A stretch of 64,000 nt of DNA, from sequence record PV287714.1; one strand, written 5' to 3'. The stretch's first letter is position 1. Each line of letters starts with the position of its first letter. Both the position numbers and the translations under genes were made by a program. This document shows positions 28,909-41,119 of this stretch, in pieces. Below the pieces are notes generated by a model. The model searched no databases. It was not told the origin of the DNA and worked only from the letters and a program-made list of their open reading frames with translations. Source of the stretch: Escherichia phage HMD-9.

Positions 28909-29234
28909 TTAGAAAATAAATTTATCCAAGATTGCTCTTTAATTAAAAATGGCTCAGAATCATATGCCATTAAACTTTGGGTAATTAGTCCTTTAAAAGG
29001 CCCATCAATAAATTCCATGGTAAAATATGGAATTTTATTCATTAATCTTGCATTAGGAGCAGTGCACAAAACTCTGCATCCTTTGAATACGCCTTTTTGT
29101 AATTTGTATTGCTTAGGATAAAATTCGCTCAAGACGTTGTTATTTGCCAAAATTTCAAAATGATTCACCAATTTATTTTTAATAGTTTTTGGCGAAAAAT
29201 AAAGATATTCGAAAAGTTGCGTGTCTGTCATCAT
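28905..29234 (-). CDS. hypothetical protein
   Basis: ORF track frame 28905..29285; start at MTDTQ (ATGA overlap). Confidence 0.45.
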
Positions 29235-29806
29235 TGCATTCCGATTACGAAAAACTGCGGACGAGTAATACCACCAATGCAACAATTACTATTGCAACAG
29301 TGGTGCACAGTTTCAATATGAATATCGTAAATTTTATCCATATCAGGAGATTTAACAGGCTCATCAATTATATACAAAATCCGCGAAAGCGATAAACCTC
29401 TGAACTTGCTACCTCTATTACCAACAAAACTACGGACAGAATCAGTAAATAAACGGAATCGAATATCATCGCCAGAATAACGAGAAAATTCTTTTTTAAT
29501 GTGGCCCGCAGAAATTTTAGCATAAGATGAAGTATTAGAAAGAACAATAACCGTTCCGCCGTCATACAACCAATTAACAGCAAAATTAGTTACTGCAGTC
29601 GATTTACCTGATTGTCTGCCACCATCTAAACGAAGTGTACAGTACTGCTTGAGTACGTCTTCAAATGGTGGGGCATAACCGTTCTTACAAATTTCTTCTA
29701 CTCTAGCATCAGAATGGTGTGTAAAAGCATTCATCAGGGATAGATAAGGTCCAGTTAAAAATGTTCTCATATTATTTCTCTTAAGGTTTGGACCATTCCG
29801 TGGCAC
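29231..29806 (-). CDS. small P-loop NTPase of unknown function (start may be internal at MRTFLTG)
   Basis: Walker A GGRQSGKST, Walker B ILYIIDEP. Confidence 0.55.
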   Translation of the reverse strand: MPRNGPNLKRNNMRTFLTGPYLSLMNAFTHHSDARVEEICKNGYAPPFEDVLKQYCTLRLDGGRQSGKSTAVTNFAVNWLYDGGTVIVLSNTSSYAKISAGHIKKEFSRYSGDDIRFRLFTDSVRSFVGNRGSKFRGLSLSRILYIIDEPVKSPDMDKIYDIHIETVHHCCNSNCCIGGITRPQFFVIGMQ

Positions 29807-29948
29807 ATGAATTGTCCATTTCTGTATTTACCCATTACCGCACTTGGGCTCGACCTTATTACAGGTTGGCGGGAATCCCTCATAGAATCATGAGGTCCAG
29901 GTTGTTCCCATGTTATTTGAATGTAAATAGGCCTAAATATAGGCCTTA

Positions 29949-30545
29949 TTAATTACCACGGGCTGCATTAGCAACGGCATAAGCGTACTGAACATTAGCG
30001 TCTTTAAACATACCTTTAGAGGTGTCTATTTCTGCCTTAAAGCCGCCTTTAGCCATAACATCGGCAAATTCTTTACGGAAAGCCATTGCATCAAGACCTT
30101 TCCATGATGATTTGTGCTTGGCGAATTCAAGACCAGCGTAGTTGACAGCCTTAGCTAATTTATTATCAATAACCCATTTACCAGCTTTAGGCACAAACAC
30201 AGGACCTTTCTGTTTAGAGAACAGTTTTAAATTCCAGCGACGAAGGTCAAAGTCAGCTTTAACAAAAGCTGCGTCCAAGTTACTAGCAACAACATCTTCA
30301 ATATGAGCAAATTTAAGTCCGTCAACTTCAATATTTAGGTCGGTACGCCAGCGAAGTCCTTTCCAGGCGAAAGCTTTAAAGTCGGAAGCCTTTGTAGCTA
30401 AATACCGTTCAATAGGAGCTGTTTTAGCGTCAAAACCATTTCCTGGGTTGTCAACGCCGTTTCCTCGGTAAGTCCACTCATCTTTATTAATGCCTTGGAC
30501 CTTTCCTACAGAAGCTTCGGCGATAAATTCTTTATATGTTTTCAT
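29949..30545 (-). CDS. internal-protein-like, capsid-targeting N-terminus (IPIII-like size)
   Basis: 198 aa; N-terminal MKTYKEFIAEA matches the recalled T4 capsid-targeting sequence (MKTYQEFIAE). Confidence 0.7.
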   Translation of the reverse strand: MKTYKEFIAEASVGKVQGINKDEWTYRGNGVDNPGNGFDAKTAPIERYLATKASDFKAFAWKGLRWRTDLNIEVDGLKFAHIEDVVASNLDAAFVKADFDLRRWNLKLFSKQKGPVFVPKAGKWVIDNKLAKAVNYAGLEFAKHKSSWKGLDAMAFRKEFADVMAKGGFKAEIDTSKGMFKDANVQYAYAVANAARGN

Positions 30546-30598
30546 ACGGATTCCTTAAAGGTAAATATTTTAATTGGTATGTTCAAGTAACTGTAGAT

Positions 30599-30627
30599 AT
30601 ACTATCACAATTCTAGGAGATGTAAAC
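30599..30627 (-). promoter_or_regulatory. T4-type early promoter (GTTTAC-N17-TAGTAT)
   Basis: Reverse complement GTTTACatctcctagaattgtgaTAGTAT. Confidence 0.5.
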
Positions 30628-31026
30628 TTATTTGTAGGTTTTCATCCAATTCTTGAACAAAGCCACGACGTCTTTCTCTTTAACGTTCAGTTTAACGTCC
30701 AACATTTTACCACCAGCTGCTCTCGTTTGGCGAATCTTAGCAGTACCGGTTTCGCCATTCCACTCAACATAATATTGTCCAGCGTTCATTGCAATACCAT
30801 CGCCGTAGTCTTCATTTTTAGAAGTGGTGAAGGCCAGCTTCATAGTCTTAGAGACACGAGCCTGCATGCCTGTCTGAAGGGCATTACGAACGCGAATAAC
30901 CTGAGGAGTGGCCTGGGTCAGGTTCTCATTCAGTTCTTCAGTGAACTCTTCAGATTCAAACATAGCCAAAAGTTCTTTAGATGCAGGAATTACATTCTCT
31001 GCGATAAATTCTTGATACGTTTTCAT
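30628..31026 (-). CDS. internal-protein-like, capsid-targeting N-terminus
   Basis: 132 aa; N-terminal MKTYQEFIAEN. Confidence 0.7.
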   Translation of the reverse strand: MKTYQEFIAENVIPASKELLAMFESEEFTEELNENLTQATPQVIRVRNALQTGMQARVSKTMKLAFTTSKNEDYGDGIAMNAGQYYVEWNGETGTAKIRQTRAAGGKMLDVKLNVKEKDVVALFKNWMKTYK

Positions 31027-31056
31027 TTTTGTTTCCTTGTTTGTTTTGATAGAGTA

Positions 31057-31086
31057 ATTATACCATAATAATACTTAAGCGTAAAC
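31057..31086 (-). promoter_or_regulatory. T4-type early promoter (GTTTAC-N18-TATAAT)
   Basis: Reverse complement GTTTACgcttaagtattattatggTATAAT. Confidence 0.6.
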
Positions 31087-31089
31087 TGT

Positions 31090-31350
31090 TTAAGCTTTAC
31101 CGCCAGAAATAATTCCGAAGTTGTTAAAATCATATCCAATATCGTCAACATCTACTTTAGGGCTTGCTACAACATAAGCAATTTCACTACGTTTTGCATA
31201 GGTGTTTATTTCTCTACCATCGCCGCCTAGGAAAGAATACCCATTACGTTTTAATGAGCCAAAGTCTTCCGCATCACCAATGAAAGCTTTAACTTTAAAT
31301 TTAGGACCTTTGGCATCTGCTTCAGCGATAAATTCTTGATACATTTTCAT
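31090..31350 (-). CDS. internal-protein-like, capsid-targeting N-terminus
   Basis: 86 aa; N-terminal MKMYQEFIAEA. Confidence 0.65.
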   Translation of the reverse strand: MKMYQEFIAEADAKGPKFKVKAFIGDAEDFGSLKRNGYSFLGGDGREINTYAKRSEIAYVVASPKVDVDDIGYDFNNFGIISGGKA

Positions 31351-31356
31351 TTTTCC

Positions 31357-31770
31357 TTAGTAAATTGATTTACCATAGTATTTGTACCAAGTAGGACGTT
31401 GAGCAATTTTTTCGTCTAAGCGTGCTTGACTTATCGCAATGGACGCTTCGGACGGGACATAATTATTACGAAATTCGGCAGGGATGTCAGAAATATCCTG
31501 AACAGTCGTGTCCTTGATTTTGAAACCACGTTTCAAGCATTCAGCGATTAGCTCGATTTGACGTAAACGTAAAAATTCGAGTTTGTCGTAAAAGAATGTT
31601 ACGTGTCCTGTGCCTAAGATAAATGTTGGAGAGATTTTAAAATCCTTTACGCGTTTACCGTTTTTAACATGTTTACGGACTGCACCAAATACGCGTGGTA
31701 ATTCACGATACTCAGCCATAAGATGTTGGTCGGTCAGTTCAGAAACAAGTGTTAAATTGATACGAGTCAT
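31357..31770 (-). CDS. denV: endonuclease V (pyrimidine-dimer DNA glycosylase)
   Basis: [34 protein letters not shown]... matches recalled T4 DenV; ATG 31770 preceded by GGAGG. Confidence 0.9.
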
Positions 31771-31797
31771 AATTTCCTCCAAGTAGTTGATGAATGT

Positions 31798-31827
31798 ATA
31801 GTATCAAAACCCTTGGAGGAAGTAAAC
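31798..31827 (-). promoter_or_regulatory. T4-type early promoter for denV (GTTTAC-N18-TACTAT)
   Basis: Reverse complement GTTTACttcctccaagggttttgaTACTAT. Confidence 0.55.
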
Positions 31828-31828
31828 A

Positions 31829-32631
<803 letters not shown>

Positions 32632-33087
32632 TTAAAAGAGGCTGTTCATTATTCGGTAAAGTGAAGGACCCATCACATATTGCCACTGAGTACGAGGAAT
32701 AAGAGCAAAAGCGTCCATCTCTGGAATCATAACGCCATCTTTATTTTCAAAATAAGACTCACAATGGCAATTTCTAAACATCTCATGCTCTACTGGAATC
32801 GTATAATAAAATAACTGTAAGTCTTTATTACTAGAATATTTAAATACACCTAGGTCTTCTAGAAGGTCTGGATTATAATTGCTAAAACCAGTCTCTTCTA
32901 AGCATTCTCTTCGTGCTGCATCTAGTGCGCTTAAATCAGAGTTTTCTACGCGACCCTTTGGAATATCCCAGCGATGTGCCATCATTCCAGGCTTACGAGA
33001 ACCAGTAACCCGACCCATAAATAAATCTTTATCTTCTGTCATAAAGATAATACCAGCTGATAAGGGTTTCATTTTAATTTCCTGCAT
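32632..33087 (-). CDS. nudE: Nudix hydrolase
   Basis: 151 aa; Nudix box GRVENSDLSALDAARRECLEETGF; position upstream of e as T4 e.1. Confidence 0.85.
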   Translation of the reverse strand: MQEIKMKPLSAGIIFMTEDKDLFMGRVTGSRKPGMMAHRWDIPKGRVENSDLSALDAARRECLEETGFSNYNPDLLEDLGVFKYSSNKDLQLFYYTIPVEHEMFRNCHCESYFENKDGVMIPEMDAFALIPRTQWQYVMGPSLYRIMNSLF

Positions 33088-33557
33088 TCAGTGATAAAGT
33101 TATTTAAATTTTGAGCATATTTCTTTTCATCAAAAATCTTTTGCTGTCTGCGTAAACGCCATGGCATTTCAATGAACATACGCCATATTCCTGATAATAC
33201 TGCTGCTGTAAAAATATTAACAAGTATAGTTAAAAGAATCCAATCGCCTATTCTGTCCATTGGATTTTTTATAAAAAAGTAAAATACGAATGATGATATA
33301 GGAAGACTAATGATATACCACAGAAGAACCTTCTTATCTGTGAACCAATCAGCATTTGTTAACTTAGCGCAACCATTTTGAATACACACGAATTTATCAT
33401 CTGTTACAGTAAATGGCTTAGCTGCTTGATATCCCATTCTAAACTCCCTAATTAATCGTTTCTTTGTATCTTCGGAACAACCATTCCAGTCAACTCTATC
33501 AACTGGAATGCCATCATCCCCATCATCTAAATCATACCAGCGAGTTTTTAAAATCAT
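33069..33557 (-). CDS. 2-TM membrane protein, tandem family member (C-terminus ...FITECRKLK)
   Basis: 162 aa; two hydrophobic helices then basic tail. Confidence 0.55.
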   Translation of the reverse strand: MILKTRWYDLDDGDDGIPVDRVDWNGCSEDTKKRLIREFRMGYQAAKPFTVTDDKFVCIQNGCAKLTNADWFTDKKVLLWYIISLPISSFVFYFFIKNPMDRIGDWILLTILVNIFTAAVLSGIWRMFIEMPWRLRRQQKIFDEKKYAQNLNNFITECRKLK

Positions 33558-33916
33558 TTAATTTTCCTACAATCACTCACAAACTCTTTCACTGATTCAT
33601 TTTCAATATAAGACATGTAGTTGTTATATTCTTTTAATTGTATTTTGTAATCCTTTTTTCTTTGCCAATTTATTTTAAAATTATCATAATGAAAATATAA
33701 TATAATACCAAAAAATGAAAACAATGAAATAATTTTGGTATAGTGAAGTTCACTCCAAACTTCTGTTATATTTACTGTGCCGTCGATGTTTAAAATAAGA
33801 CAGTCAATTAACAATCCAAAAAGACTACCCGCAAGAGCTGCAGCCAACGCCACAGCAAAAATTAAAAATGACTCAGGAAGCGAATATTTGACTTTATTTA
33901 GTTTTGGCTTTTGCAT
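33554..33916 (-). CDS. 2-TM membrane protein, tandem family member (C-terminus ...FVSDCRKIK)
   Basis: ORF track 120 aa. Confidence 0.55.
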   Translation of the reverse strand: MQKPKLNKVKYSLPESFLIFAVALAAALAGSLFGLLIDCLILNIDGTVNITEVWSELHYTKIISLFSFFGIILYFHYDNFKINWQRKKDYKIQLKEYNNYMSYIENESVKEFVSDCRKIK

Positions 33917-34311
33917 CGTGATTCCTTAACAAATTTCATAATTTCATCAAATTCATACATATCAAGTTTAAGCTGGTGTTCCTTTTTAATCTTTTTACAC
34001 TGTGCTTTCCAATCACGTACGCGTTTACGATAATGTCTTCCTTGATACCAGTATCCTACCCAATTTACAGGTACTAATAAAAATGGAATTATTAATGGAA
34101 GAATTAGCATTAACACAAGTATTTCACCAGAATCAATATCAGTCATAACATCTAAAACACCTCCAATAATCAATAGAATTACAAATGATATGAGTATAAC
34201 AGGACCTATTAACACATCAGTAGGAATTAGCTGGCGCTTTAGTTCATACTTCAAAGGTTTACTTGGAAGGTATAGTGATGGCTTTGACATATTCTCTACA
34301 TTCCTTAACAA
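33898..34311 (-). CDS. 2-TM membrane protein, tandem family member (C-terminus ...FVKESRCKSQN)
   Basis: ORF track 137 aa. Confidence 0.55.
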   Translation of the reverse strand: MLRNVENMSKPSLYLPSKPLKYELKRQLIPTDVLIGPVILISFVILLIIGGVLDVMTDIDSGEILVLMLILPLIIPFLLVPVNWVGYWYQGRHYRKRVRDWKAQCKKIKKEHQLKLDMYEFDEIMKFVKESRCKSQN

Positions 34312-34867
34312 ATTTTTCTAGTAATAAATCGCTTTCAAAACTAGGATTTTCCACGAATTTATCAAAAAGATCATCAACAATATTCAAGATATTCCTTTTA
34401 CTAAGAATACATTTATTTTCATGCTTCGTTTCAGAGTCAATTATAAGAGTAAAGAAATATTTCTTTCCCTGAAATTTTACTGTAGTATCAATATAAAATA
34501 AATTTGACTTTTGTAAATTACGTTTAAACCATGCGTCGCTTAAACTATAAACACCGAGATAATCAAAATCGTCGTTTAAATAACAAACTGACCATTCAGG
34601 AGAAATGAAATCAGTAAATTCAACATCAAAATCACATGTTAATGAATGAATTGATTCAATACTTTTAATGAGTATTCCAGGGCGTATTAAAGACTTTTTA
34701 CCTCTGGAAAATCTTCCAGAAAGACTTTCATCAGTTTCATATGAAGACCCCCAATAATAATTACGTCCTTCTGCCATACGTTTAAGAGCATTTAGTAATT
34801 GATCTGGAACATCAACATGTCTTTTGAACTCTTCAAACATTGAATTGAAATCACTTTGCATTTTCAT
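34259..34867 (-). CDS. soluble protein sharing the family C-terminal motif (...FVKECREYVK)
   Basis: ORF track 202 aa. Confidence 0.55.
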   Translation of the reverse strand: MKMQSDFNSMFEEFKRHVDVPDQLLNALKRMAEGRNYYWGSSYETDESLSGRFSRGKKSLIRPGILIKSIESIHSLTCDFDVEFTDFISPEWSVCYLNDDFDYLGVYSLSDAWFKRNLQKSNLFYIDTTVKFQGKKYFFTLIIDSETKHENKCILSKRNILNIVDDLFDKFVENPSFESDLLLEKFVKECREYVKAITIPSK

Positions 34868-34888
34868 TCCTATTTACTCCAAGTAATA

Positions 34889-34902
34889 GGGGCCGAAGCC
34901 CC
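34889..34902 (-). terminator. GC stem-loop (GGGGC-UUCG-GCCCC) after coiled-coil gene; weak U-run
   Basis: ggggccgaagcccc at 34889-34902. Confidence 0.35.
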
Positions 34903-34908
34903 TTATCA

Positions 34909-35502
34909 TTATTTCAGAGAATTAATATATTCCTGGACATCGGCAGAGGTAGTTTCAACCCCAGAAATATTGCCGTTAAAAGTTTCAACTCGAGCAAGGG
35001 TATCTTCAATATCAACCTTAGTCAGTGCTGCAATTTCAACTACATCATCGGCAGTACTAATTCCAAGGGCATTTGCCGCACGAGTTTCACGGATATATTC
35101 CAATTTAACTGCAAGTTCTTGGCGAGCATCATCTAACTCAACTACTTTCTTGGCGATTTCAATTCGCATTTCAGCATAACCGTCAGCTTTAGTAGTCAAT
35201 TGCTCAGCTGTTCGACGATATAGCAAACCGAGTTTAGCGTGCATTGTTACATCTTGACCTTCGGAAAGAAGTTTACGAATTTCACGCTCTTTTGATTCGG
35301 CTTGTCGATTCTTTTCAATAACAAGTTCACGAATACGTTTTTCTTCATTAATAGATTTAACAGAAGCAGTTTTTAAGTCTTTAATCTTATCAAGTAGTTT
35401 TGCTGCTGCAGCAGTATACTGTTCTTCAACAGATAGATTTTTAGCCATAGCAGAACCAAGTTTAGTGCGAATAAACTCAACAATTTTCTTCAGTGTGTTC
35501 AT
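34909..35502 (-). CDS. coiled-coil protein of unknown function
   Basis: 197 aa; heptad-rich, E/K/R/A-rich. Confidence 0.55.
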
Positions 35503-35791
35503 AGTATTTCCTTAGGTTAATTAAGATTTAAAAATCCGTGAGAATATTATATTTCAAAGAGTTTATAAACTATTTCAACATCTCCTTTTGCCGCTTTATA
35601 ACCTTCAGCCCAAGATACAACCAAGTTTTTATCTGAAGATTCAAAGTCAGGCATTGGACTTTCATCAATGTTCACACAGTATGTTTCTTCATTTTCGTCA
35701 AACCAAATAGTTAAAATAGTCATTTATTTCTCCGCTTCTGTGATTGTTTTGATAAATCTATAATAACACCGTCCTTGGCGTTTGTACACAA

Positions 35792-36055
35792 TTATTTCAT
35801 ATTATTGAAATATTCTTCTGCGATTTCGTCGTTATCATGGTAAACTTTAGAAGACAGTTTAACATAACCTTCAGCAGTGAACATGTTAATCACAACCTTT
35901 ACAGTATACCACTGACCGTCTTCATTACCCATTACTGCGTAAGTTTCAAACATCGGATGGTCAGGACCGATAACTTTAATATCATTCACTGTACGACCGA
36001 AATCTTCTGAAACGCATTTCATAAAGAAGTTGAACAGTTCGCCGTAATTATCCAT
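35792..36055 (-). CDS. hypothetical protein (start at MDNYGELF, downstream of promoter)
   Basis: ORF track frame 35792..36109; ATG 36055 preceded by GGAGAA and lies downstream of predicted TSS. Confidence 0.5.
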   Translation of the reverse strand: MDNYGELFNFFMKCVSEDFGRTVNDIKVIGPDHPMFETYAVMGNEDGQWYTVKVVINMFTAEGYVKLSSKVYHDNDEIAEEYFNNMK

Positions 36056-36099
36056 TTCATTCTCCAAGTTGTTTTTCTGTATCAGTAGTTGATAGTTGT

Positions 36100-36129
36100 A
36101 TAGTACCACGGAAGAACATGGATGTAAAC
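36100..36129 (-). promoter_or_regulatory. T4-type early promoter (GTTTAC-N18-TACTAT)
   Basis: Reverse complement GTTTACatccatgttcttccgtggTACTAT. Confidence 0.6.
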
Positions 36130-36261
36130 AGTTTTGTGAAAAAAATTTTAAAAAGTTTTGGGGAATTCTAGGGCAGGGAGGGGCAATTAAAGGATAGGAT
36201 AATATATTATAAAGGATAGAAACTAAATGATGCCTAGAGAGGCCCAGAAAGGTCTAGATGC

Positions 36262-36288
36262 CAAAAAAGCCCTATCATTTAGATAGGG
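36262..36288 (-). terminator. rho-independent terminator
   Basis: CCCTATC-uaaau-GATAGGG stem plus CUUUUUU on minus strand, after the stop at 36297. Confidence 0.65.
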
Positions 36289-36296
36289 ATTTAAAA

Positions 36297-36860
36297 TTAT
36301 TTGCTTAGTTTAGTTATTATAGCTTCTGCGGCAGCTTTTAGCTTAGATGCGGTGTTAATACGATTTTTAATTTCAGTATACGCATCGCCAAGAACATCAA
36401 GGCTATCAGAATAAACACTTACACTATTGCGTTCGCTATTTGAAATAGAACCTTTAGTTTTACGATCAAAATCGGTATACACGTCTTGAAGATCGCGGGC
36501 TGCCTTCTTTGCATCATCCAATGCGTCAAGAGCTTTATTCAAAGCATTAACATATTTTTTAGTGTCAAACATATTCTTAGAAATTTTAACAGGTGCACGT
36601 TCAGGAGTAGCTAATGCAGATTTAGGAACCTGAGCGCCAGATGCCAATTTCTTAGAAATTTTGAAAAATGCTTTATTGAATTTATTTTCTTGACTCATTG
36701 TAAAAGAACTATTATCGATGTTGTACATTTCAATAGCTTTAGCTTTCCACTTAAGAAAATCGCCGCGGTCTTTTGGATCCAAGTGGAAGAATACTTTAGT
36801 AAGATCTGCTTCAGATGGTAATTTTGCTGCTTCGGTTAAAAATTCGGCATAGGTTTTCAT
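36297..36860 (-). CDS. internal-protein-like, capsid-targeting N-terminus
   Basis: 187 aa; N-terminal MKTYAEFLTEA. Confidence 0.65.
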   Translation of the reverse strand: MKTYAEFLTEAAKLPSEADLTKVFFHLDPKDRGDFLKWKAKAIEMYNIDNSSFTMSQENKFNKAFFKISKKLASGAQVPKSALATPERAPVKISKNMFDTKKYVNALNKALDALDDAKKAARDLQDVYTDFDRKTKGSISNSERNSVSVYSDSLDVLGDAYTEIKNRINTASKLKAAAEAIITKLSK

Positions 36861-36950
36861 TTAAAATCCTTGAAATAATTTATCGGTTGGTTATTAATTA
36901 TTTATTACTTTGTTATTATCCGTAACAGCATTCTCTATGTGATTCAAACT

Positions 36951-36977
36951 AAAAAGCCCTAACCTTTCGGTCAGGGT
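36951..36977 (-). terminator. rho-independent terminator
   Basis: CCCUGACC-gaaa-GGUUAGGG stem plus CUUUUU on minus strand. Confidence 0.6.
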
Positions 36978-36985
36978 TAAGAATG

Positions 36986-37459
36986 TTATTTGATTTGTTT
37001 AGCAGACCAAATGCGGTCTTTAATAATTTTTTGGATGTCTTCAACATACTCTAGGTCATGAGCATGTGGGTTGTCTTTGAAACTATAAGCACGGGCTAAC
37101 TTTTGGCCTTCGGTTTTGATTACTAAAAGCTCTTTAAGGATAGCTTCATATTTAGCGATAATTCCTTTAACAATATTTTTTTCTTGTGCAGCTTTAGGAT
37201 CCGCTTTAGGAGCAGGTTTACCGGAAGGTTTTTCGAAAGCCGCACCAGTAGCAACCAGGCTTTTCCAGGCGGTGGTAACATAGTTACCCACAAAGCCTTC
37301 AGCTCTCATATCGTCGTAGAACTTGTACCGGGATTCGTCAGAAGCATCTTTATAAGAATATTTACCAGCTTTAATAGCAGCAGTTGCTACAGCGCGAACA
37401 TCTGAAGCGGATGCTTCATTTAACGCCACTTCATTTAAAAATTGAGCATATGATTTCAT
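36986..37459 (-). CDS. internal-protein-like, capsid-targeting N-terminus
   Basis: 157 aa; N-terminal MKSYAQFLNEVA. Confidence 0.6.
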   Translation of the reverse strand: MKSYAQFLNEVALNEASASDVRAVATAAIKAGKYSYKDASDESRYKFYDDMRAEGFVGNYVTTAWKSLVATGAAFEKPSGKPAPKADPKAAQEKNIVKGIIAKYEAILKELLVIKTEGQKLARAYSFKDNPHAHDLEYVEDIQKIIKDRIWSAKQIK

Positions 37460-37497
37460 CTTATTTCCTGTTTTAATTCGTGATTTAATACACTACT

Positions 37498-37505
37498 ATA
37501 TTTAT
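37498..37505 (-). promoter_or_regulatory. T4 late promoter box TATAAATA
   Basis: Plus tatttata at 37498-37505, immediately after terminator U-run and upstream of 36986..37459. Confidence 0.45.
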
Positions 37506-37508
37506 ACT

Positions 37509-37535
37509 AAAAAGCCCCAACCTTTCGGTCGGGGC
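37509..37535 (-). terminator. rho-independent terminator ending the tRNA/small-RNA transcript
   Basis: GCCCCGACC-gaaa-GGUUGGGGC stem plus U5 on minus strand. Confidence 0.6.
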
Positions 37536-37536
37536 T

Positions 37537-37846
37537 AAGCCTTGCGGCAACCTTGTCGGGGTTCCACCTGCTAAGGCAAGTGTTTGTACGAAACGCCGGG
37601 ATTCGAACCCGGTTATTAAGCAGTTGACGCTACTCAATATTTTAAAAGGCCATATCTCGACCATATCCGAACGTTCCGTCAAAAACGCTACTCGGCTTAC
37701 GGCAAAGATATTTCCTCGAATCGATAATTCGGTGCGCCGTTTCAGCTGTGATAGTAAAGAACCAGAACACAGTAAAACTGTGGGAGGAACTATACTCCAT
37801 GGAACATCAGTCCGACGACTTACCGGTAGCGACCCGGTTTCTTGTT
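37537..37846 (-). ncRNA. putative stable small RNA(s) downstream of tRNA-Arg (T4 species-1/2 RNA-like), with tRNA-like T-arm/acceptor element at 37588-37678
   Basis: No ORF; T-arm-like CCGGGTTCGAATCCCGG and 7-bp acceptor-like pairing but no canonical D/anticodon arms. Confidence 0.4.
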
Positions 37847-37922
37847 TGGTCGAGGCAGTAGGGGTCGAACCTACGACCTAGGACTTAGAAGGTCCTTGCT
37901 CTTCCTTCTGAGCTATGCCTCG
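37847..37922 (-). tRNA. tRNA-Arg (anticodon TCT), CCA encoded
   Basis: Manual fold: acceptor CGAGGCA/TGCCTCG, D-arm GCTC..GAGC, anticodon loop CTTCTAA, T-loop TTCGACC. Confidence 0.8.
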
Positions 37923-37926
37923 GATT

Positions 37927-38001
37927 TGGCGGACATGCATGGATTCGAACCATGGACCAATTGATTAACAGTCAACTGCTCTACCACTGAGCTACACATC
38001 C
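37927..38001 (-). tRNA. tRNA-Asn (anticodon GTT), CCA encoded
   Basis: Manual fold: acceptor with two G-U pairs, D-arm GCTCAGTGGTAGAGC, anticodon loop CTGTTAA, T-loop TTCGAAT. Confidence 0.7.
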
Positions 38002-38005
38002 AAAT

Positions 38006-38092
38006 TGGTGGGGAGTGATGGAGTCGAACCACCCGAGTCGCAATGACAATGGATTTACAGTCCACACCGCTACCTCTACGGGATAACTCCCC
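38006..38092 (-). tRNA. tRNA-Tyr (anticodon GTA), long variable arm, CCA encoded
   Basis: Manual fold: acceptor GGGGAGT/ACTCCCC, anticodon loop CTGTAAA, T-loop TTCGACT. Confidence 0.7.
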
Positions 38093-38101
38093 TAATTAAT
38101 T

Positions 38102-38176
38102 TGGTGGCCCTGGGTGGAATTGAACCACCATCTGGCGATTATGAGTCGCTTGCTTGAACCTTCCAGCTACAGGGCC
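38102..38176 (-). tRNA. tRNA with CAT anticodon (Met, or Ile if lysidine-modified), CCA encoded
   Basis: Manual fold: acceptor GGCCCTG/CAGGGCC, anticodon loop CTCATAA, T-loop TTCAATT. Confidence 0.7.
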
Positions 38177-38177
38177 T

Positions 38178-38253
38178 TGGTGCTGATTGACGGAATCGAA
38201 CCGCCGACCTTCTCATTACAAGTGAGTTGCTCTACCTACTGAGCTAAATCAGC
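38178..38253 (-). tRNA. tRNA-Thr (anticodon TGT), CCA encoded
   Basis: Manual fold: acceptor GCTGATT/AATCAGC, anticodon loop CTTGTAA, T-loop TTCGATT. Confidence 0.8.
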
Positions 38254-38258
38254 AAAAC

Positions 38259-38348
38259 TGGCGGAGGCGATAGGATTTGAACCTATGAGTCGCCGGAGCG
38301 ACTGCCGGTTTTCAAGACCGGTGCATTAAACCACTCTGCCACGCCTCC
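38259..38348 (-). tRNA. tRNA-Ser (anticodon TGA), long variable arm, CCA encoded
   Basis: GGAGGCGTGGCAGAGTGG...anticodon loop CTTGAAA...TTCAAATCC; matches recalled T4 tRNA-Ser. Confidence 0.85.
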
Positions 38349-38350
38349 AG

Positions 38351-38424
38351 TCTCCGTGGCAGGATTTGAACCTGCGACATTCTGCTCCCAAAGCAGACGC
38401 TCTACCAAACTGAGCTACACGGAG
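38351..38424 (-). tRNA. tRNA-Pro (anticodon TGG), no encoded CCA
   Basis: Manual fold: acceptor CTCCGTG/CACGGAG, anticodon loop TTTGGGA; 2-nt spacer to tRNA-Ser. Confidence 0.8.
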
Positions 38425-38434
38425 TAAATTAAAT

Positions 38435-38508
<74 letters not shown>

Positions 38509-38513
38509 AAATT

Positions 38514-38600
38514 TGGTGCGAGAAGTGGGACTCGAACCCACAAGGAAATCATTCCGCAGCATTTTAAGTGCTGTGCCTTTACCAATTTGACCATTCTCGC
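38514..38600 (-). tRNA. tRNA-Leu (anticodon TAA), long variable arm, CCA encoded
   Basis: GCGAGAATGGTCAAATTGGTAAAGGCACAGCACTTAAAATGCTG... matches recalled T4 tRNA-Leu. Confidence 0.88.
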
Positions 38601-38601
38601 G

Positions 38602-38674
38602 CTGGGAATAAAGGACTCGAACCTTTGCATCTAGCAGTCAAAGTGCTATGCCTTACCAACTTGGCTAATTCCCA
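38602..38674 (-). tRNA. tRNA-Gln (anticodon TTG), no encoded CCA, 1-nt spacer to tRNA-Leu
   Basis: TGGGAATTAGCCAAGTTGGTAAGGCATAGCACTTTGACTGCT...; Gln-Leu dimer arrangement as recalled for T4. Confidence 0.85.
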
Positions 38675-38771
38675 ATTATTAACAAAGGCTCTCAAACAAG
38701 AACCCTTGATGATAGAGGGTATTAATCGGTGCGATATGAGTTAATAATAACAAATAATTCTTAAAGCATAT

Positions 38772-39059
38772 TTACCATTTATGATAATACATATTTACGA
38801 TGCATTCAAGACCCAAAGGATTCTTGAAAATATCATATTCAAGAGGACCTTTTTCTGTTTCAATAAAGAAATCAAAATTTACTGTATTAAATTTACGGTC
38901 TTCCTTCACTAATTTAACTTGAGAAGATGAACGGTCAATGTAAACCTTTTCAACTTCAAAACATGTTAAAATGCCATAATCATCAATCAAGGCTTTCGCC
39001 GCGTCTTGATCATATTTATATCCATTTTCAATGGATGATACTTTCGCATAAAGAATCAT
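38772..39059 (-). CDS. hypothetical protein
   Basis: ORF track 95 aa. Confidence 0.5.
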   Translation of the reverse strand: MILYAKVSSIENGYKYDQDAAKALIDDYGILTCFEVEKVYIDRSSSQVKLVKEDRKFNTVNFDFFIETEKGPLEYDIFKNPLGLECIVNMYYHKW

Positions 39060-39061
39060 TA

Positions 39062-39454
39062 TCAGCCTTCATCAACAATAGTATGCGTATTGGCATTTAC
39101 GATTTGCCACCAATCAAAGCGATTAGAACCATAATCTGGTTTGTTTTCATTTTCTTTGATAATGTCACGAAGTTCATCTTCAGTAGCGGCTTTCGCGATT
39201 AAATCAGCATATCCACCACGAGGATAATAATTATCACCTGCAAAAAGTAAAAAGTTTGGTTTAATATTATTGAACTCTTCAAGAGTAATAACTTTTCCTG
39301 ATGGTAGTTGAACAATCTCTACATATTTATATCCTAATTTTTGAGCAGCATCTACTGCTTCAAGCAAAGTATCATGAGCCCATCCAATTTGACAACCTGG
39401 CTTTTCAGATGGATTAGCCTGATAATCCGCGTACACTTTATACATTCTATTCAC
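39062..39454 (-). CDS. hypothetical protein
   Basis: ORF track 130 aa. Confidence 0.55.
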   Translation of the reverse strand: MNRMYKVYADYQANPSEKPGCQIGWAHDTLLEAVDAAQKLGYKYVEIVQLPSGKVITLEEFNNIKPNFLLFAGDNYYPRGGYADLIAKAATEDELRDIIKENENKPDYGSNRFDWWQIVNANTHTIVDEG

Positions 39455-39632
39455 CTTTAGAAATTTTATCCATAACGATAGCGATTAAACCAATTAAAAA
39501 TGCTACTACAAGTGAAAAAACATTTTCTGCTGTAGTCAATAATCCGCATATAAATCCAACAAACATTGAAAAACTAAAAGCGGAAGCAGAAATTGCAATA
39601 GCAACATTTCGAATTAATTCACAACGTTTCAT
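39447..39632 (-). CDS. small membrane protein (two hydrophobic segments)
   Basis: 61 aa; early promoter directly upstream. Confidence 0.5.
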   Translation of the reverse strand: MKRCELIRNVAIAISASAFSFSMFVGFICGLLTTAENVFSLVVAFLIGLIAIVMDKISKGE

Positions 39633-39660
39633 TTTATTCTCCTCTGTAGTTGATAGGGTA

Positions 39661-39690
39661 ATAGTATCACTACCCTATCTAAAAGTAAAC
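39661..39690 (-). promoter_or_regulatory. T4-type early promoter (GTTTAC-N18-TACTAT)
   Basis: Reverse complement GTTTACttttagatagggtagtgaTACTAT. Confidence 0.6.
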
Positions 39691-39702
39691 TGTTTTTATA
39701 AA

Positions 39703-40011
39703 CTATTTTATTCCGCGTGATGCAATTGTATTCTGTCGTTTAGCACCAGTTTGTTTAAAGTCATGATTGTCGATTTGATCGGTACGAGCAACTCCGAATG
39801 ATGATTTAATCTTAGCTTTAGATCCTTTAGTTATAGAAATAAACATCTCGGAAGCCCCTTTCTTAAAGTCCGAAGCAATTACTTCAACACCGTTCTTAGC
39901 AAGTGACTTCAGAATTGCCTCCGCGTACTCATCATCAAGACTCGCTTGAGTATTAATAACGAATGTCTTTGGTGCAGCCGCTTCATTGATAAATTCTTTA
40001 AATGTTTTCAT
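39703..40011 (-). CDS. internal-protein-like, capsid-targeting N-terminus (IPI-like position next to 57B)
   Basis: 102 aa; N-terminal MKTFKEFINEAA. Confidence 0.65.
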   Translation of the reverse strand: MKTFKEFINEAAAPKTFVINTQASLDDEYAEAILKSLAKNGVEVIASDFKKGASEMFISITKGSKAKIKSSFGVARTDQIDNHDFKQTGAKRQNTIASRGIK

Positions 40012-40041
40012 TTTATTTTCCTAATTAATTTTGATGAGATA

Positions 40042-40071
40042 ATAGTATCACTACCCTATCTAAAAGTAAAC
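40042..40071 (-). promoter_or_regulatory. T4-type early promoter (GTTTAC-N18-TACTAT)
   Basis: Reverse complement GTTTACttttagatagggtagtgaTACTAT (near-identical to the cassette at 39661). Confidence 0.6.
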
Positions 40072-40344
40072 TCATTTTAAATAAATTGCGTATTTTTTAT
40101 AGCCACCAGGCTCGTGTCGAAGACCCCTATCATTAGCAAAACGCTCAATGTTGTTAATTTGATTCTGGTCAAGTTCAGAGATGTCAAACACGAAATAGTT
40201 ACGTTTGTTACCAACTGTTACATAGTCAGTTAAATCAATACCATATAGGTAATTGATGTCAGCAATCATAGTCTTGACAGCTTTGCTAATTTTTACTTTT
40301 TCGTTAAAAGTAGCTTCATTGATAAATTCTTTAAATGTTTTCAT
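40072..40344 (-). CDS. internal-protein-like, capsid-targeting N-terminus
   Basis: Start at MKTFKEFINEAT (ORF track frame 40072..40356). Confidence 0.65.
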   Translation of the reverse strand: MKTFKEFINEATFNEKVKISKAVKTMIADINYLYGIDLTDYVTVGNKRNYFVFDISELDQNQINNIERFANDRGLRHEPGGYKKYAIYLK

Positions 40345-40380
40345 TTTATTCTCCAATCACTCATTTGTTTTGATAGGGTA

Positions 40381-40410
40381 ATAGTATCACAACTAAAACC
40401 CCGTGTAAAC
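40381..40410 (-). promoter_or_regulatory. T4-type early promoter (GTTTAC-N18-TACTAT)
   Basis: Reverse complement GTTTACacggggttttagttgtgaTACTAT. Confidence 0.6.
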
Positions 40411-40422
40411 AACTTTGTGAAA

Positions 40423-41119
<697 letters not shown>

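Follow-up and report, generated by a model that had tools for sequence, protein, structure and literature searches.

A 64,000-nucleotide stretch of the genome of Escherichia phage HMD-9 (sequence record PV287714.1; hereafter the window) contains eight minus-strand open reading frames (ORFs), labelled A to H, each with a capsid targeting sequence (CTS) of the T4 type at its start. These genes very probably belong to the T4-type class of CTS-bearing internal proteins. We put at roughly three in four the probability of the fuller reading, in which they encode T-even internal proteins that are packaged through the CTS, cleaved by the prohead protease gp21 and injected as counter-defence factors, with a cassette turnover driven by repeats. 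That most of the eight act as counter-defence factors is held with moderate confidence, and we infer the packaging, cleavage and injection of each HMD-9 protein as well as every individual target. The phenomenon itself, a variable arsenal of CTS-bearing internal proteins in T-even phages, is already established and is not new; the novelty is limited to the unannotated genes B, E and F and to a third locus.

Eight Genes with a Capsid Targeting Sequence

The window comes from a Tequatrovirus (T4-like) genome that is 95-97% identical to many sequenced coliphages and identical to none. The region holding the eight genes has the same backbone as T4 and carries, on the minus strand, a vs.8 homologue, denV, the lysozyme gene e, nudE, e.2-e.8, a tRNA cluster and then 57B, 57A and gene 1. 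The CTS genes within it are as follows:

A: 29949-30545, minus strand, IPIII-type internal protein (IP, internal protein), 198 amino acids (aa), leader MKTYKEFIAE
B: 30628-31026, minus strand, CTS protein of an unnamed family, 132 aa, leader MKTYQEFIAE
C: 31090-31350, minus strand, CTS protein, 86 aa, leader MKMYQEFIAE, mature part neutral
D: 31829-32110, minus strand, Ip5-like internal protein, 93 aa, second L-N-E site at residue 15
E: 36297-36860, minus strand, CTS protein, 187 aa, leader MKTYAEFLTE, net charge +9
F: 36986-37459, minus strand, CTS protein, 157 aa, leader MKSYAQFLNE, second LNE at residue 15
G: 39703-40011, minus strand, Ip7, 102 aa, leader MKTFKEFINE
H: 40072-40344, minus strand, Ip9, 90 aa, leader MKTFKEFINE

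An earlier reading of the letters alone (the original prediction) had placed eight such ORFs at these coordinates. All are present, and they are the sole CTS matches in the 64 kb: in a six-frame scan of the window, MKx[YFW]xxF[ILMV]xE and looser patterns match exactly A-H and nothing else, while 200 shuffles of the window gave a chance expectation with a mean of 0.005 and a maximum of 1. A Shine-Dalgarno sequence precedes the ATG of every one of them; that of H is GGAG, 8 nt upstream, which makes a start at TTG 40356 unlikely. The literal pattern first proposed, MKT(Y/F)xEF(I/L)xE, fits six of the ORFs but is too strict for C (M3) and F (S3, Q6). Similarly, the leader MKTYQEFIAE, first given as common to the three T4 internal proteins, is that of T4 IPII and IPIII but not of IPI, whose leader is MKTFKEFTSTTTPVSTITE, 19 residues long.

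Leader Determinants

The leader of T4 IPIII has been dissected by amber-suppressor analysis, which assigned residues 4 and 7 to targeting and residues 8 and 10 to processing, with Asp10 preventing cleavage, and residues 1-10 are enough to package foreign proteins (PMC9026906). M1, K2, Y/F4, F7, I/L8 and E10 are kept in all eight leaders of the window. The targeting determinants (an aromatic residue at 4, Phe at 7) thus stand at the extreme N-terminus of each protein, right after an ATG preceded by a ribosome-binding site (RBS), and the gp21 processing motif (Ile/Leu at 8, Glu rather than Asp at 10) is likewise present in 8/8. D and F feature an extra L-N-E ending at residue 15. Beyond the leader, six of the mature proteins have an isoelectric point (pI) of 8.8-9.7 and 10-15% Lys, like T4 IPI-III.

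The leader-coding DNA and the RBS lie together in a 42-nt repeat, and the junctions of gene cassettes fall in this repeat. Moreover, one and the same body is found with different leader variants in different phages: the Ip9 body is joined to MKTFKEFINE, MKTYQEFISE or MKTYQEFIAE, and the Ip7 body to MKTFKEFINE or MKTYQEFITE, which implies recombination at the boundary between leader and body. These observations would also fit a shared 5' module that is kept as DNA or RNA, either as a portable promoter/RBS/start cassette or as a recombination hotspot, with the decapeptide playing no targeting role in most of the genes. We regard this explanation as very improbable. Variation among the eight leaders is concentrated at positions 3, 5, 6 and 9, and the four critical residues are invariant despite synonymous codon changes (ACA/ACC/ACG, GAA/GAG) and the conservative two-base change from ATC (Ile) to TTA (Leu), a pattern that argues for selection on the peptide and not on the DNA alone. 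In addition, distant homologues of E and F alter K2 and T3 and yet keep F/Y4, F7, I/L8 and E10, and the sufficiency of the IPIII decapeptide for packaging also speaks against a leader with no targeting role.

Relationship to Known Internal Proteins

T-even internal proteins have been described as a highly diverse defence set with the CTS alone in common (Rao and Black, PMC3012670, citing Repoila et al., 1994), and at least 10 Ips, recognised by their signal sequence, have been reported (Silas et al., 2025, PMC12373910). As relayed by PMC3012670 and PMC12373910, the description of polymorphic ip loci with a conserved leader goes back to Repoila (1994, EMBO J 13:4181). Internal proteins are unmentioned in Petrov 2010 and Nolan 2006. 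In T4, each of the proteins Ip1, Ip2 and Ip3 blocks its own GmrSD type IV restriction enzyme, with Ip3 acting on the GmrS1/GmrSD2 enzyme of ECOR17 (Silas et al., 2025, PMC12373910), and IPIII is required on ECOR17 (Srikant et al., 2022, PMC9391042). A further CTS protein, bas37_0260 of phage Bas37, inhibits McrBC (HIDEN-SEQ preprint, 10.1101/2025.11.20.689424).

Body homology to a named internal protein is found for A (IPIII), G (Ip7), H (Ip9) and D (Ip5-like), and for C by way of annotated orthologues; the same five fall in PHROG families labelled internal head or virion protein. By sequence comparison A is the IPIII orthologue, with 177/198 residues identical to T4 IPIII (89%) and 186/198 to ipIII of Dhakavirus UGJNEcP3; it matches phrog_5341 ('internal virion protein', E=1.9e-114), and its mature part has a pI of 9.6 and a net charge of +9. 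G is assigned as Ip7 (100% identical to RB32 Ip7; phrog_2667, 'internal head protein', E=2e-41) and H as Ip9 (88% identical to RB32 Ip9; phrog_7673, 'internal head protein', E=2e-53). The match of D to RB32 Ip5 (48% identity, E=1e-24) and to phrog_3499 ('internal head protein', E=1.2e-46) identifies it, at this level of similarity, as an Ip5 homologue. C is 95-98% identical to proteins of F25 and G4498, and the G4498 copy (gp127) bears the RefSeq label 'internal head protein'. C and G share phrog_2667, and homology between them was considered and rejected, as hhalign aligns the leader only.

B, E and F have no homology to a named Ip, fall in PHROGs of unknown function, and are 'hypothetical' and without an Ip name in every record examined. 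For B, which belongs to phrog_15461 (function label 'unknown'), tblastn found 49 phage records, always 'hypothetical'; the genus-identified matches examined were all Dhakavirus, T4-likes of Klebsiella, Erwinia or Serratia, or Mosigvirus F27, and B is missing in the closest Tequatrovirus relatives. None of the proteins tested had a significant sequence match in Pfam, NCBIfam or the PDB.

Compared with T4, the window has the same leader determinants, small and mostly basic proteins, the same denV/e and 57B neighbourhoods, and in A an orthologue of IPIII. It differs in having eight such genes against three, in lacking an IPI or IPII orthologue and in its gene order, e-D-denV-C-B-A as opposed to e-ipIII-ipII-denV. 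The resemblance to the polymorphic internal proteins of the Ip4-Ip13 type lies in G (Ip7), H (Ip9) and D (related to Ip5) and in the direct repeats that flank the cassettes, as the RB32 annotation states; B, E and F, nameless in this nomenclature, are the difference. The precedent of bas37_0260, a CTS protein at an ipI-type locus with a demonstrated role against type IV restriction, supports the functional reading of G and H, although none of A-H resembles it past the leader. G and H were themselves ruled out as the Bas37 McrBC inhibitor, as bas37_0260 is a different, 77-aa protein. Outside the T4-like phages, gp7/16/20 of P22 and the E proteins of SPN3US and phiKZ are likewise packaged in the head and delivered with the DNA, and those of the giant phages (SPN3US, phiKZ) are processed after Glu by a gp21-like protease, but these proteins have no sequence relationship to A-H, other roles (conduit formation, virion RNA polymerase) and other targeting signals.

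Repertoire Size Among Relatives

For 13 Tequatrovirus genomes, among them that of the window, the CTS ORFs of this interval were counted from annotated records:

8 CTS ORFs: the window; G4498 (with a different set)
7 CTS ORFs: F25
6 CTS ORFs: Nami; Lv5cm; Phaginator
5 CTS ORFs: RB32; 236Ecol005PP
4 CTS ORFs: RB14; Bas37
3 CTS ORFs: T4; AR1; fD1

The original prediction spoke of an expanded repertoire. This is true relative to the three genes of T4, but eight is the top of an ordinary range of 3-8 that G4498 also reaches, with 5-7 in close relatives, and T4 stands at its low end. Together with a Mosigvirus and a Dhakavirus locus, the sampled genomes hold 14 body families. A degenerate CTS-coding DNA pattern searched against IMG/VR gave, among the matches listed, mostly single matches on diverse contigs.

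The E/F Family and a Third Locus

While A-D and G-H are located at known ip loci (ipII/ipIII-e and ipI-57B, respectively), E and F sit between e.8 and rnaC, a third locus outside the 'two Ip loci' of PMC12373910. Relative to T4, the window has an extra 1.2 kb between e.8 and rnaC/rnaD; where the window has two genes, T4 has a terminator hairpin only, upstream of rnaC/rnaD. The rnaC/rnaD homologue (species 1 and 2 RNAs) lies at 37540-37846 and is 89% identical to that of T4. Inside it, at 37586-37679, ARAGORN calls a 94-nt 'tRNA-Lys(ttt)' that the Rfam tRNA model does not back.

Both proteins fall in phrog_2280 (unknown function). E is 98-99% identical to RB14ncORF136c and bas37_0243 (97.9% being the figure given for bas37_0243), and F is 84-85% identical to RB32ORF133c, bas37_0244 and fD1 g140. 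The bodies of the eight had been called unrelated to each other; BLASTP of the mature parts indeed gives no match, but hhalign of F against the E family finds a common C-terminal domain (93.5% probability, E=2.3e-7), and F is by this profile comparison a distant paralogue of E. E consists of an N-terminal helical domain, a P/K linker and a C-terminal helical hairpin. The AlphaFold2 models are only moderately confident (mean predicted local distance difference test score, pLDDT, 66.7 for E and 72.8 for F), and a Foldseek search of the PDB with the F model returned nothing better than E=0.5 at a template modelling (TM) score of ~0.2; no function is therefore drawn from structure.

The family is wider than direct searches with E suggest. 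A phmmer search of E against 1.8 billion representatives retrieved 5 clusters only, and word-indexed searches recovered near-identical relatives only. Distant relatives were obtained by tblastn with the P0013 relative (31% identical) as the query, which yielded 350 phage records, 'hypothetical' in every record among the matches listed. Beyond Tequatrovirus, the family occurs in Karamvirus, Mosigvirus, Dhakavirus, Kanagawavirus, Winklervirus, Kagamiyamavirus and an Erwinia phage, so that it spans at least eight Tevenvirinae genera with conserved position and architecture. The leader is conserved in homologues down to ~30% identity: M-x-x-[FY]-x-E-F-[IL]-x-E is found in all members examined, and a second site of the cleavage type is frequent at residues 15-18. 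Next in order are a small helical domain, a segment rich in Pro, Ala and Lys, and a C-terminal domain that is again helical. Among seven records from other genera that were compared (the annotated copies all 'hypothetical', 2/7 records unannotated), this segment reaches 70-90% P+A+K over 30 residues with a net charge of +14 to +17; it is shorter in E and F of the window. The segment of the other-genus proteins is reminiscent of histone H1-like DNA-binding tails.

Transposon insertion data are available for the Bas37 relatives. In the supplementary tables of the HIDEN-SEQ preprint (10.1101/2025.11.20.689424), an insertion is recorded at 1 of the 48 TA sites of bas37_0243 and the gene is listed as 'Essential', while its neighbours, the F orthologue included, are freely disrupted; the authors do not discuss this essentiality. 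Applied to T4, the same method classes hoc, inh, segE and wac as 'Essential' and alt, soc, rnaC/D and ipI-III as non-essential (10.1101/2025.11.20.689424). Hoc has been described as a non-essential outer capsid protein (PMC3012670), and the 'Essential' class thus holds questionable calls. A late-gene artefact is not a general cause of the insertion intolerance of E, as alt and soc were freely disrupted in T4 (hoc, inh, segE and wac were not). The call may be an artefact, one possibility being a repeat-flanked cassette lost from the laboratory stock, or it may reflect a real need in a phage that lacks IPIII, IPII and Ip4, as Bas37 does.

A structural role, or one in organising DNA, has to be taken seriously as an alternative for E and F. 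Some of the eight, and above all these two, would still be packaged through the CTS but would be chiefly structural, either DNA-condensing or part of the prohead core (morphogenetic); we consider this unlikely. The main job of such proteins would be charge neutralisation, organisation of the packaged DNA or efficient head assembly, as is partly the case for T4 IPIII. The position and architecture conserved in at least eight genera and the highly charged segment of up to 90% Pro+Ala+Lys fit such a role, as does the near absence of insertions in bas37_0243, set among freely disrupted neighbours in a phage without IPIII, IPII and Ip4. T4 IPs also bind DNA at low salt, and IPIII mutants show head assembly at half the normal rate, a burst ~40% of normal and polyheads (PMC9026906). 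Against it, E is missing in T4, RB32, AR1, fD1, 236Ecol005PP and Lv5cm and F in T4, RB14 and G4498, the T4 triple-IP mutant is viable (PMC9026906), the F orthologue of Bas37 tolerates disruption, and the screen that calls bas37_0243 'Essential' does the same for hoc, inh, segE and wac. A bolder proposition is that E/F form a third CTS-delivered family and locus, older and more widely conserved than IPI-III, with an E-type member that Bas37 and similar phages genuinely cannot do without. We regard this as a long shot; if it were true, E would be required either in the prohead core or for organising DNA, or else it would be injected to inhibit a defence that even E. coli K-12 possesses.

Proposed Mechanism and Its Standing

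In the mechanism favoured here for the eight genes, that of packaged and injected counter-defence proteins, the 10-residue leader would give each protein affinity for the gp22 scaffolding core, and the protein would be built into the prohead before DNA entry. The prohead protease gp21 would cut after Glu10 and, in D and F, possibly also after the second L-N-E at residue 15. The mature protein, mostly basic and lysine-rich, would remain with the packaged DNA and be co-injected, and its action in the host would precede any phage gene expression. There the protein would most likely serve as a stoichiometric inhibitor of type IV restriction enzymes (GmrSD family, McrBC type) whose substrate is glucosyl-hydroxymethylcytosine DNA, with each internal protein matched to a different enzyme variant; an alpha-glucosyltransferase gene is present in the phage. 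The arsenal is spread over three loci, namely A-D around denV/e, E-F between e.8 and rnaC, and G-H beside 57B/acb1, and would turn over by recombination between the leader-coding, promoter and terminator repeats that bound the cassettes, including exchange between genera.

The original prediction of candidate injected anti-defence effectors is supported by the five of eight genes in internal head or virion PHROGs, by the orthology to named Ips and by the detection of an F orthologue in virions of another phage. This last point comes from Yersinia phage fD1, in which g140 (84.7% identical to F) was above a strict threshold in liquid chromatography-tandem mass spectrometry (LC-MS/MS) of purified virions; LC-MS/MS of the same purified virions, a preparation of low specificity, also revealed g129 (Ip4 type) and g146 (IPI type). 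Targets had been described as unknown for all eight. This stands for B-H but not for A, whose T4 orthologue Ip3 inhibits the ECOR17 GmrSD, and A is also the only one of the eight that is an orthologue of a functionally characterised internal protein, so that known orthologues do not refute the prediction.

Several points weigh against this mechanism. Detection in fD1 is weak evidence, since 113 of 277 phage proteins and 672 host proteins were present in the same preparation. None of the seven proteins other than the IPIII type has a known target, none of the eight is an orthologue of Ip1, Ip2 or bas37_0260, and structure searches gave no functional clue. The mature parts of C and D are not basic but approximately neutral (pI 6.3-6.4), and the P/A/K-rich linker of E and F resembles a DNA-binding tail more closely than it does an enzyme inhibitor. 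The 'Essential' class of the Bas37 E orthologue is not expected of a dispensable counter-defence gene. Finally, gp21 and gp22 should, judging by T4 gene order, fall outside the 64 kb window; both are among the conserved core genes of T4-related phages (PMC9026906).

The value of the arsenal follows from the T4 precedent, in which all three IPs block different type IV restriction enzymes and act before phage gene expression. Since HMD-9 has eight internal protein genes and the three of T4 each block an enzyme, seven candidate inhibitors without a known target are on offer, of use in mapping the defences that limit T-even host range and in choosing or engineering therapeutic phages. In practice the analysis improves annotation: 'putative CTS-targeted internal protein' is the label that B, E and F, and with them the widespread E/F family, should receive. 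Conceptually it adds little, because this class of proteins, the polymorphism it shows and the role it probably plays were established before.

Repeats, Predicted Promoters and Probable Cassette Exchange

The repeats, promoter-like sites and hairpins that accompany the eight genes are listed below. The early-type promoters are predicted ones, being consensus matches with an extended -10.

30514-30555, 30995-31036, 31319-31360, 36829-36870, 37428-37469, 39980-40021 and 40313-40354, minus strand: 42-nt repeat of RBS plus CTS-coding sequence (repeat families D1 and D4)
32066-32110, minus strand: leader-coding segment of gene D (related repeat family)
40031-40079 (ahead of G), 40370-40418 (ahead of H) and 31046-31094 (ahead of B), minus strand: T4-early-type promoter repeat, GTTTAC...GATACTAT (repeat family D2)
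31787-31835, 36089-36137 and 39650-39698: further similar early-type promoter copies (repeat family D2)
30599-30626: similar early-type promoter site ahead of A (consensus match)
37499-37506 (ahead of F), 32609-32616 and 32622-32629 (ahead of e and D), minus strand: T4 late-promoter motif TATAAATA
36270-36288 (after E), 36957-36976 (between F and E) and 37513-37536 (upstream of F), minus strand: terminator hairpin (repeats D7 and D9)
29929-29946: separate hairpin following A

The 1.2 kb E-F insertion is bounded and divided by the three copies of one hairpin, of which T4, without the 1.2 kb, has a single copy. B is an insertion relative to F25 and Nami, with its junctions in duplicated leader-coding sequence (30518-30545 and 30998-31026). 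Over the block of A and B (29899-31026), identity to Dhakavirus UGJNEcP3 is 94.4%, against 71-77% for the DNA on either side, which suggests that ip cassettes are exchanged between genera; B in particular appears to have been so exchanged. The B-C-D trio is also carried by Mosigvirus F27.

At 32107-32110, the sequence ATGA combines the start codon of D with the stop codon of the lysozyme gene e. This overlap and the two TATAAATA motifs just upstream of e suggest that D is transcribed late together with e and that its translation is coupled to that of e. The number of TATAAATA motifs in the window is not above chance, and the placement of the late motifs is thus merely suggestive.

In 236Ecol005PP, the closest relative overall, the C-type gene has a frameshifted C-terminus and encodes 93 aa ending in ...TILDMILTTSELFLAVKLKQFTLKY (2186-2461 of the compared stretch), which may reflect a decaying cassette or a sequencing error. 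This frameshift and the frequent gain and loss of cassettes are what would be seen if several of the ORFs were leftovers of decaying ip cassettes, with expression already lost. Such decay is scarcely credible for the genes of the window, as all eight are full length, equipped with an RBS and, at 85-100% identity, matched by intact orthologues in many phages, and promoter-like sites lie upstream of most of them.

Neighbouring Genes

A 57B homologue at 40423-40878, which in the annotation of relatives is Acb1, a protein directed against the cyclic-oligonucleotide-based antiphage signalling system (CBASS), directly adjoins G and H, and this proximity makes the G/H stretch a small counter-defence neighbourhood. 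At the other end of the region, a 191-aa ORF in the vs.8 position (29231-29806) contains a Walker-A-like motif, GGRQSGKST.

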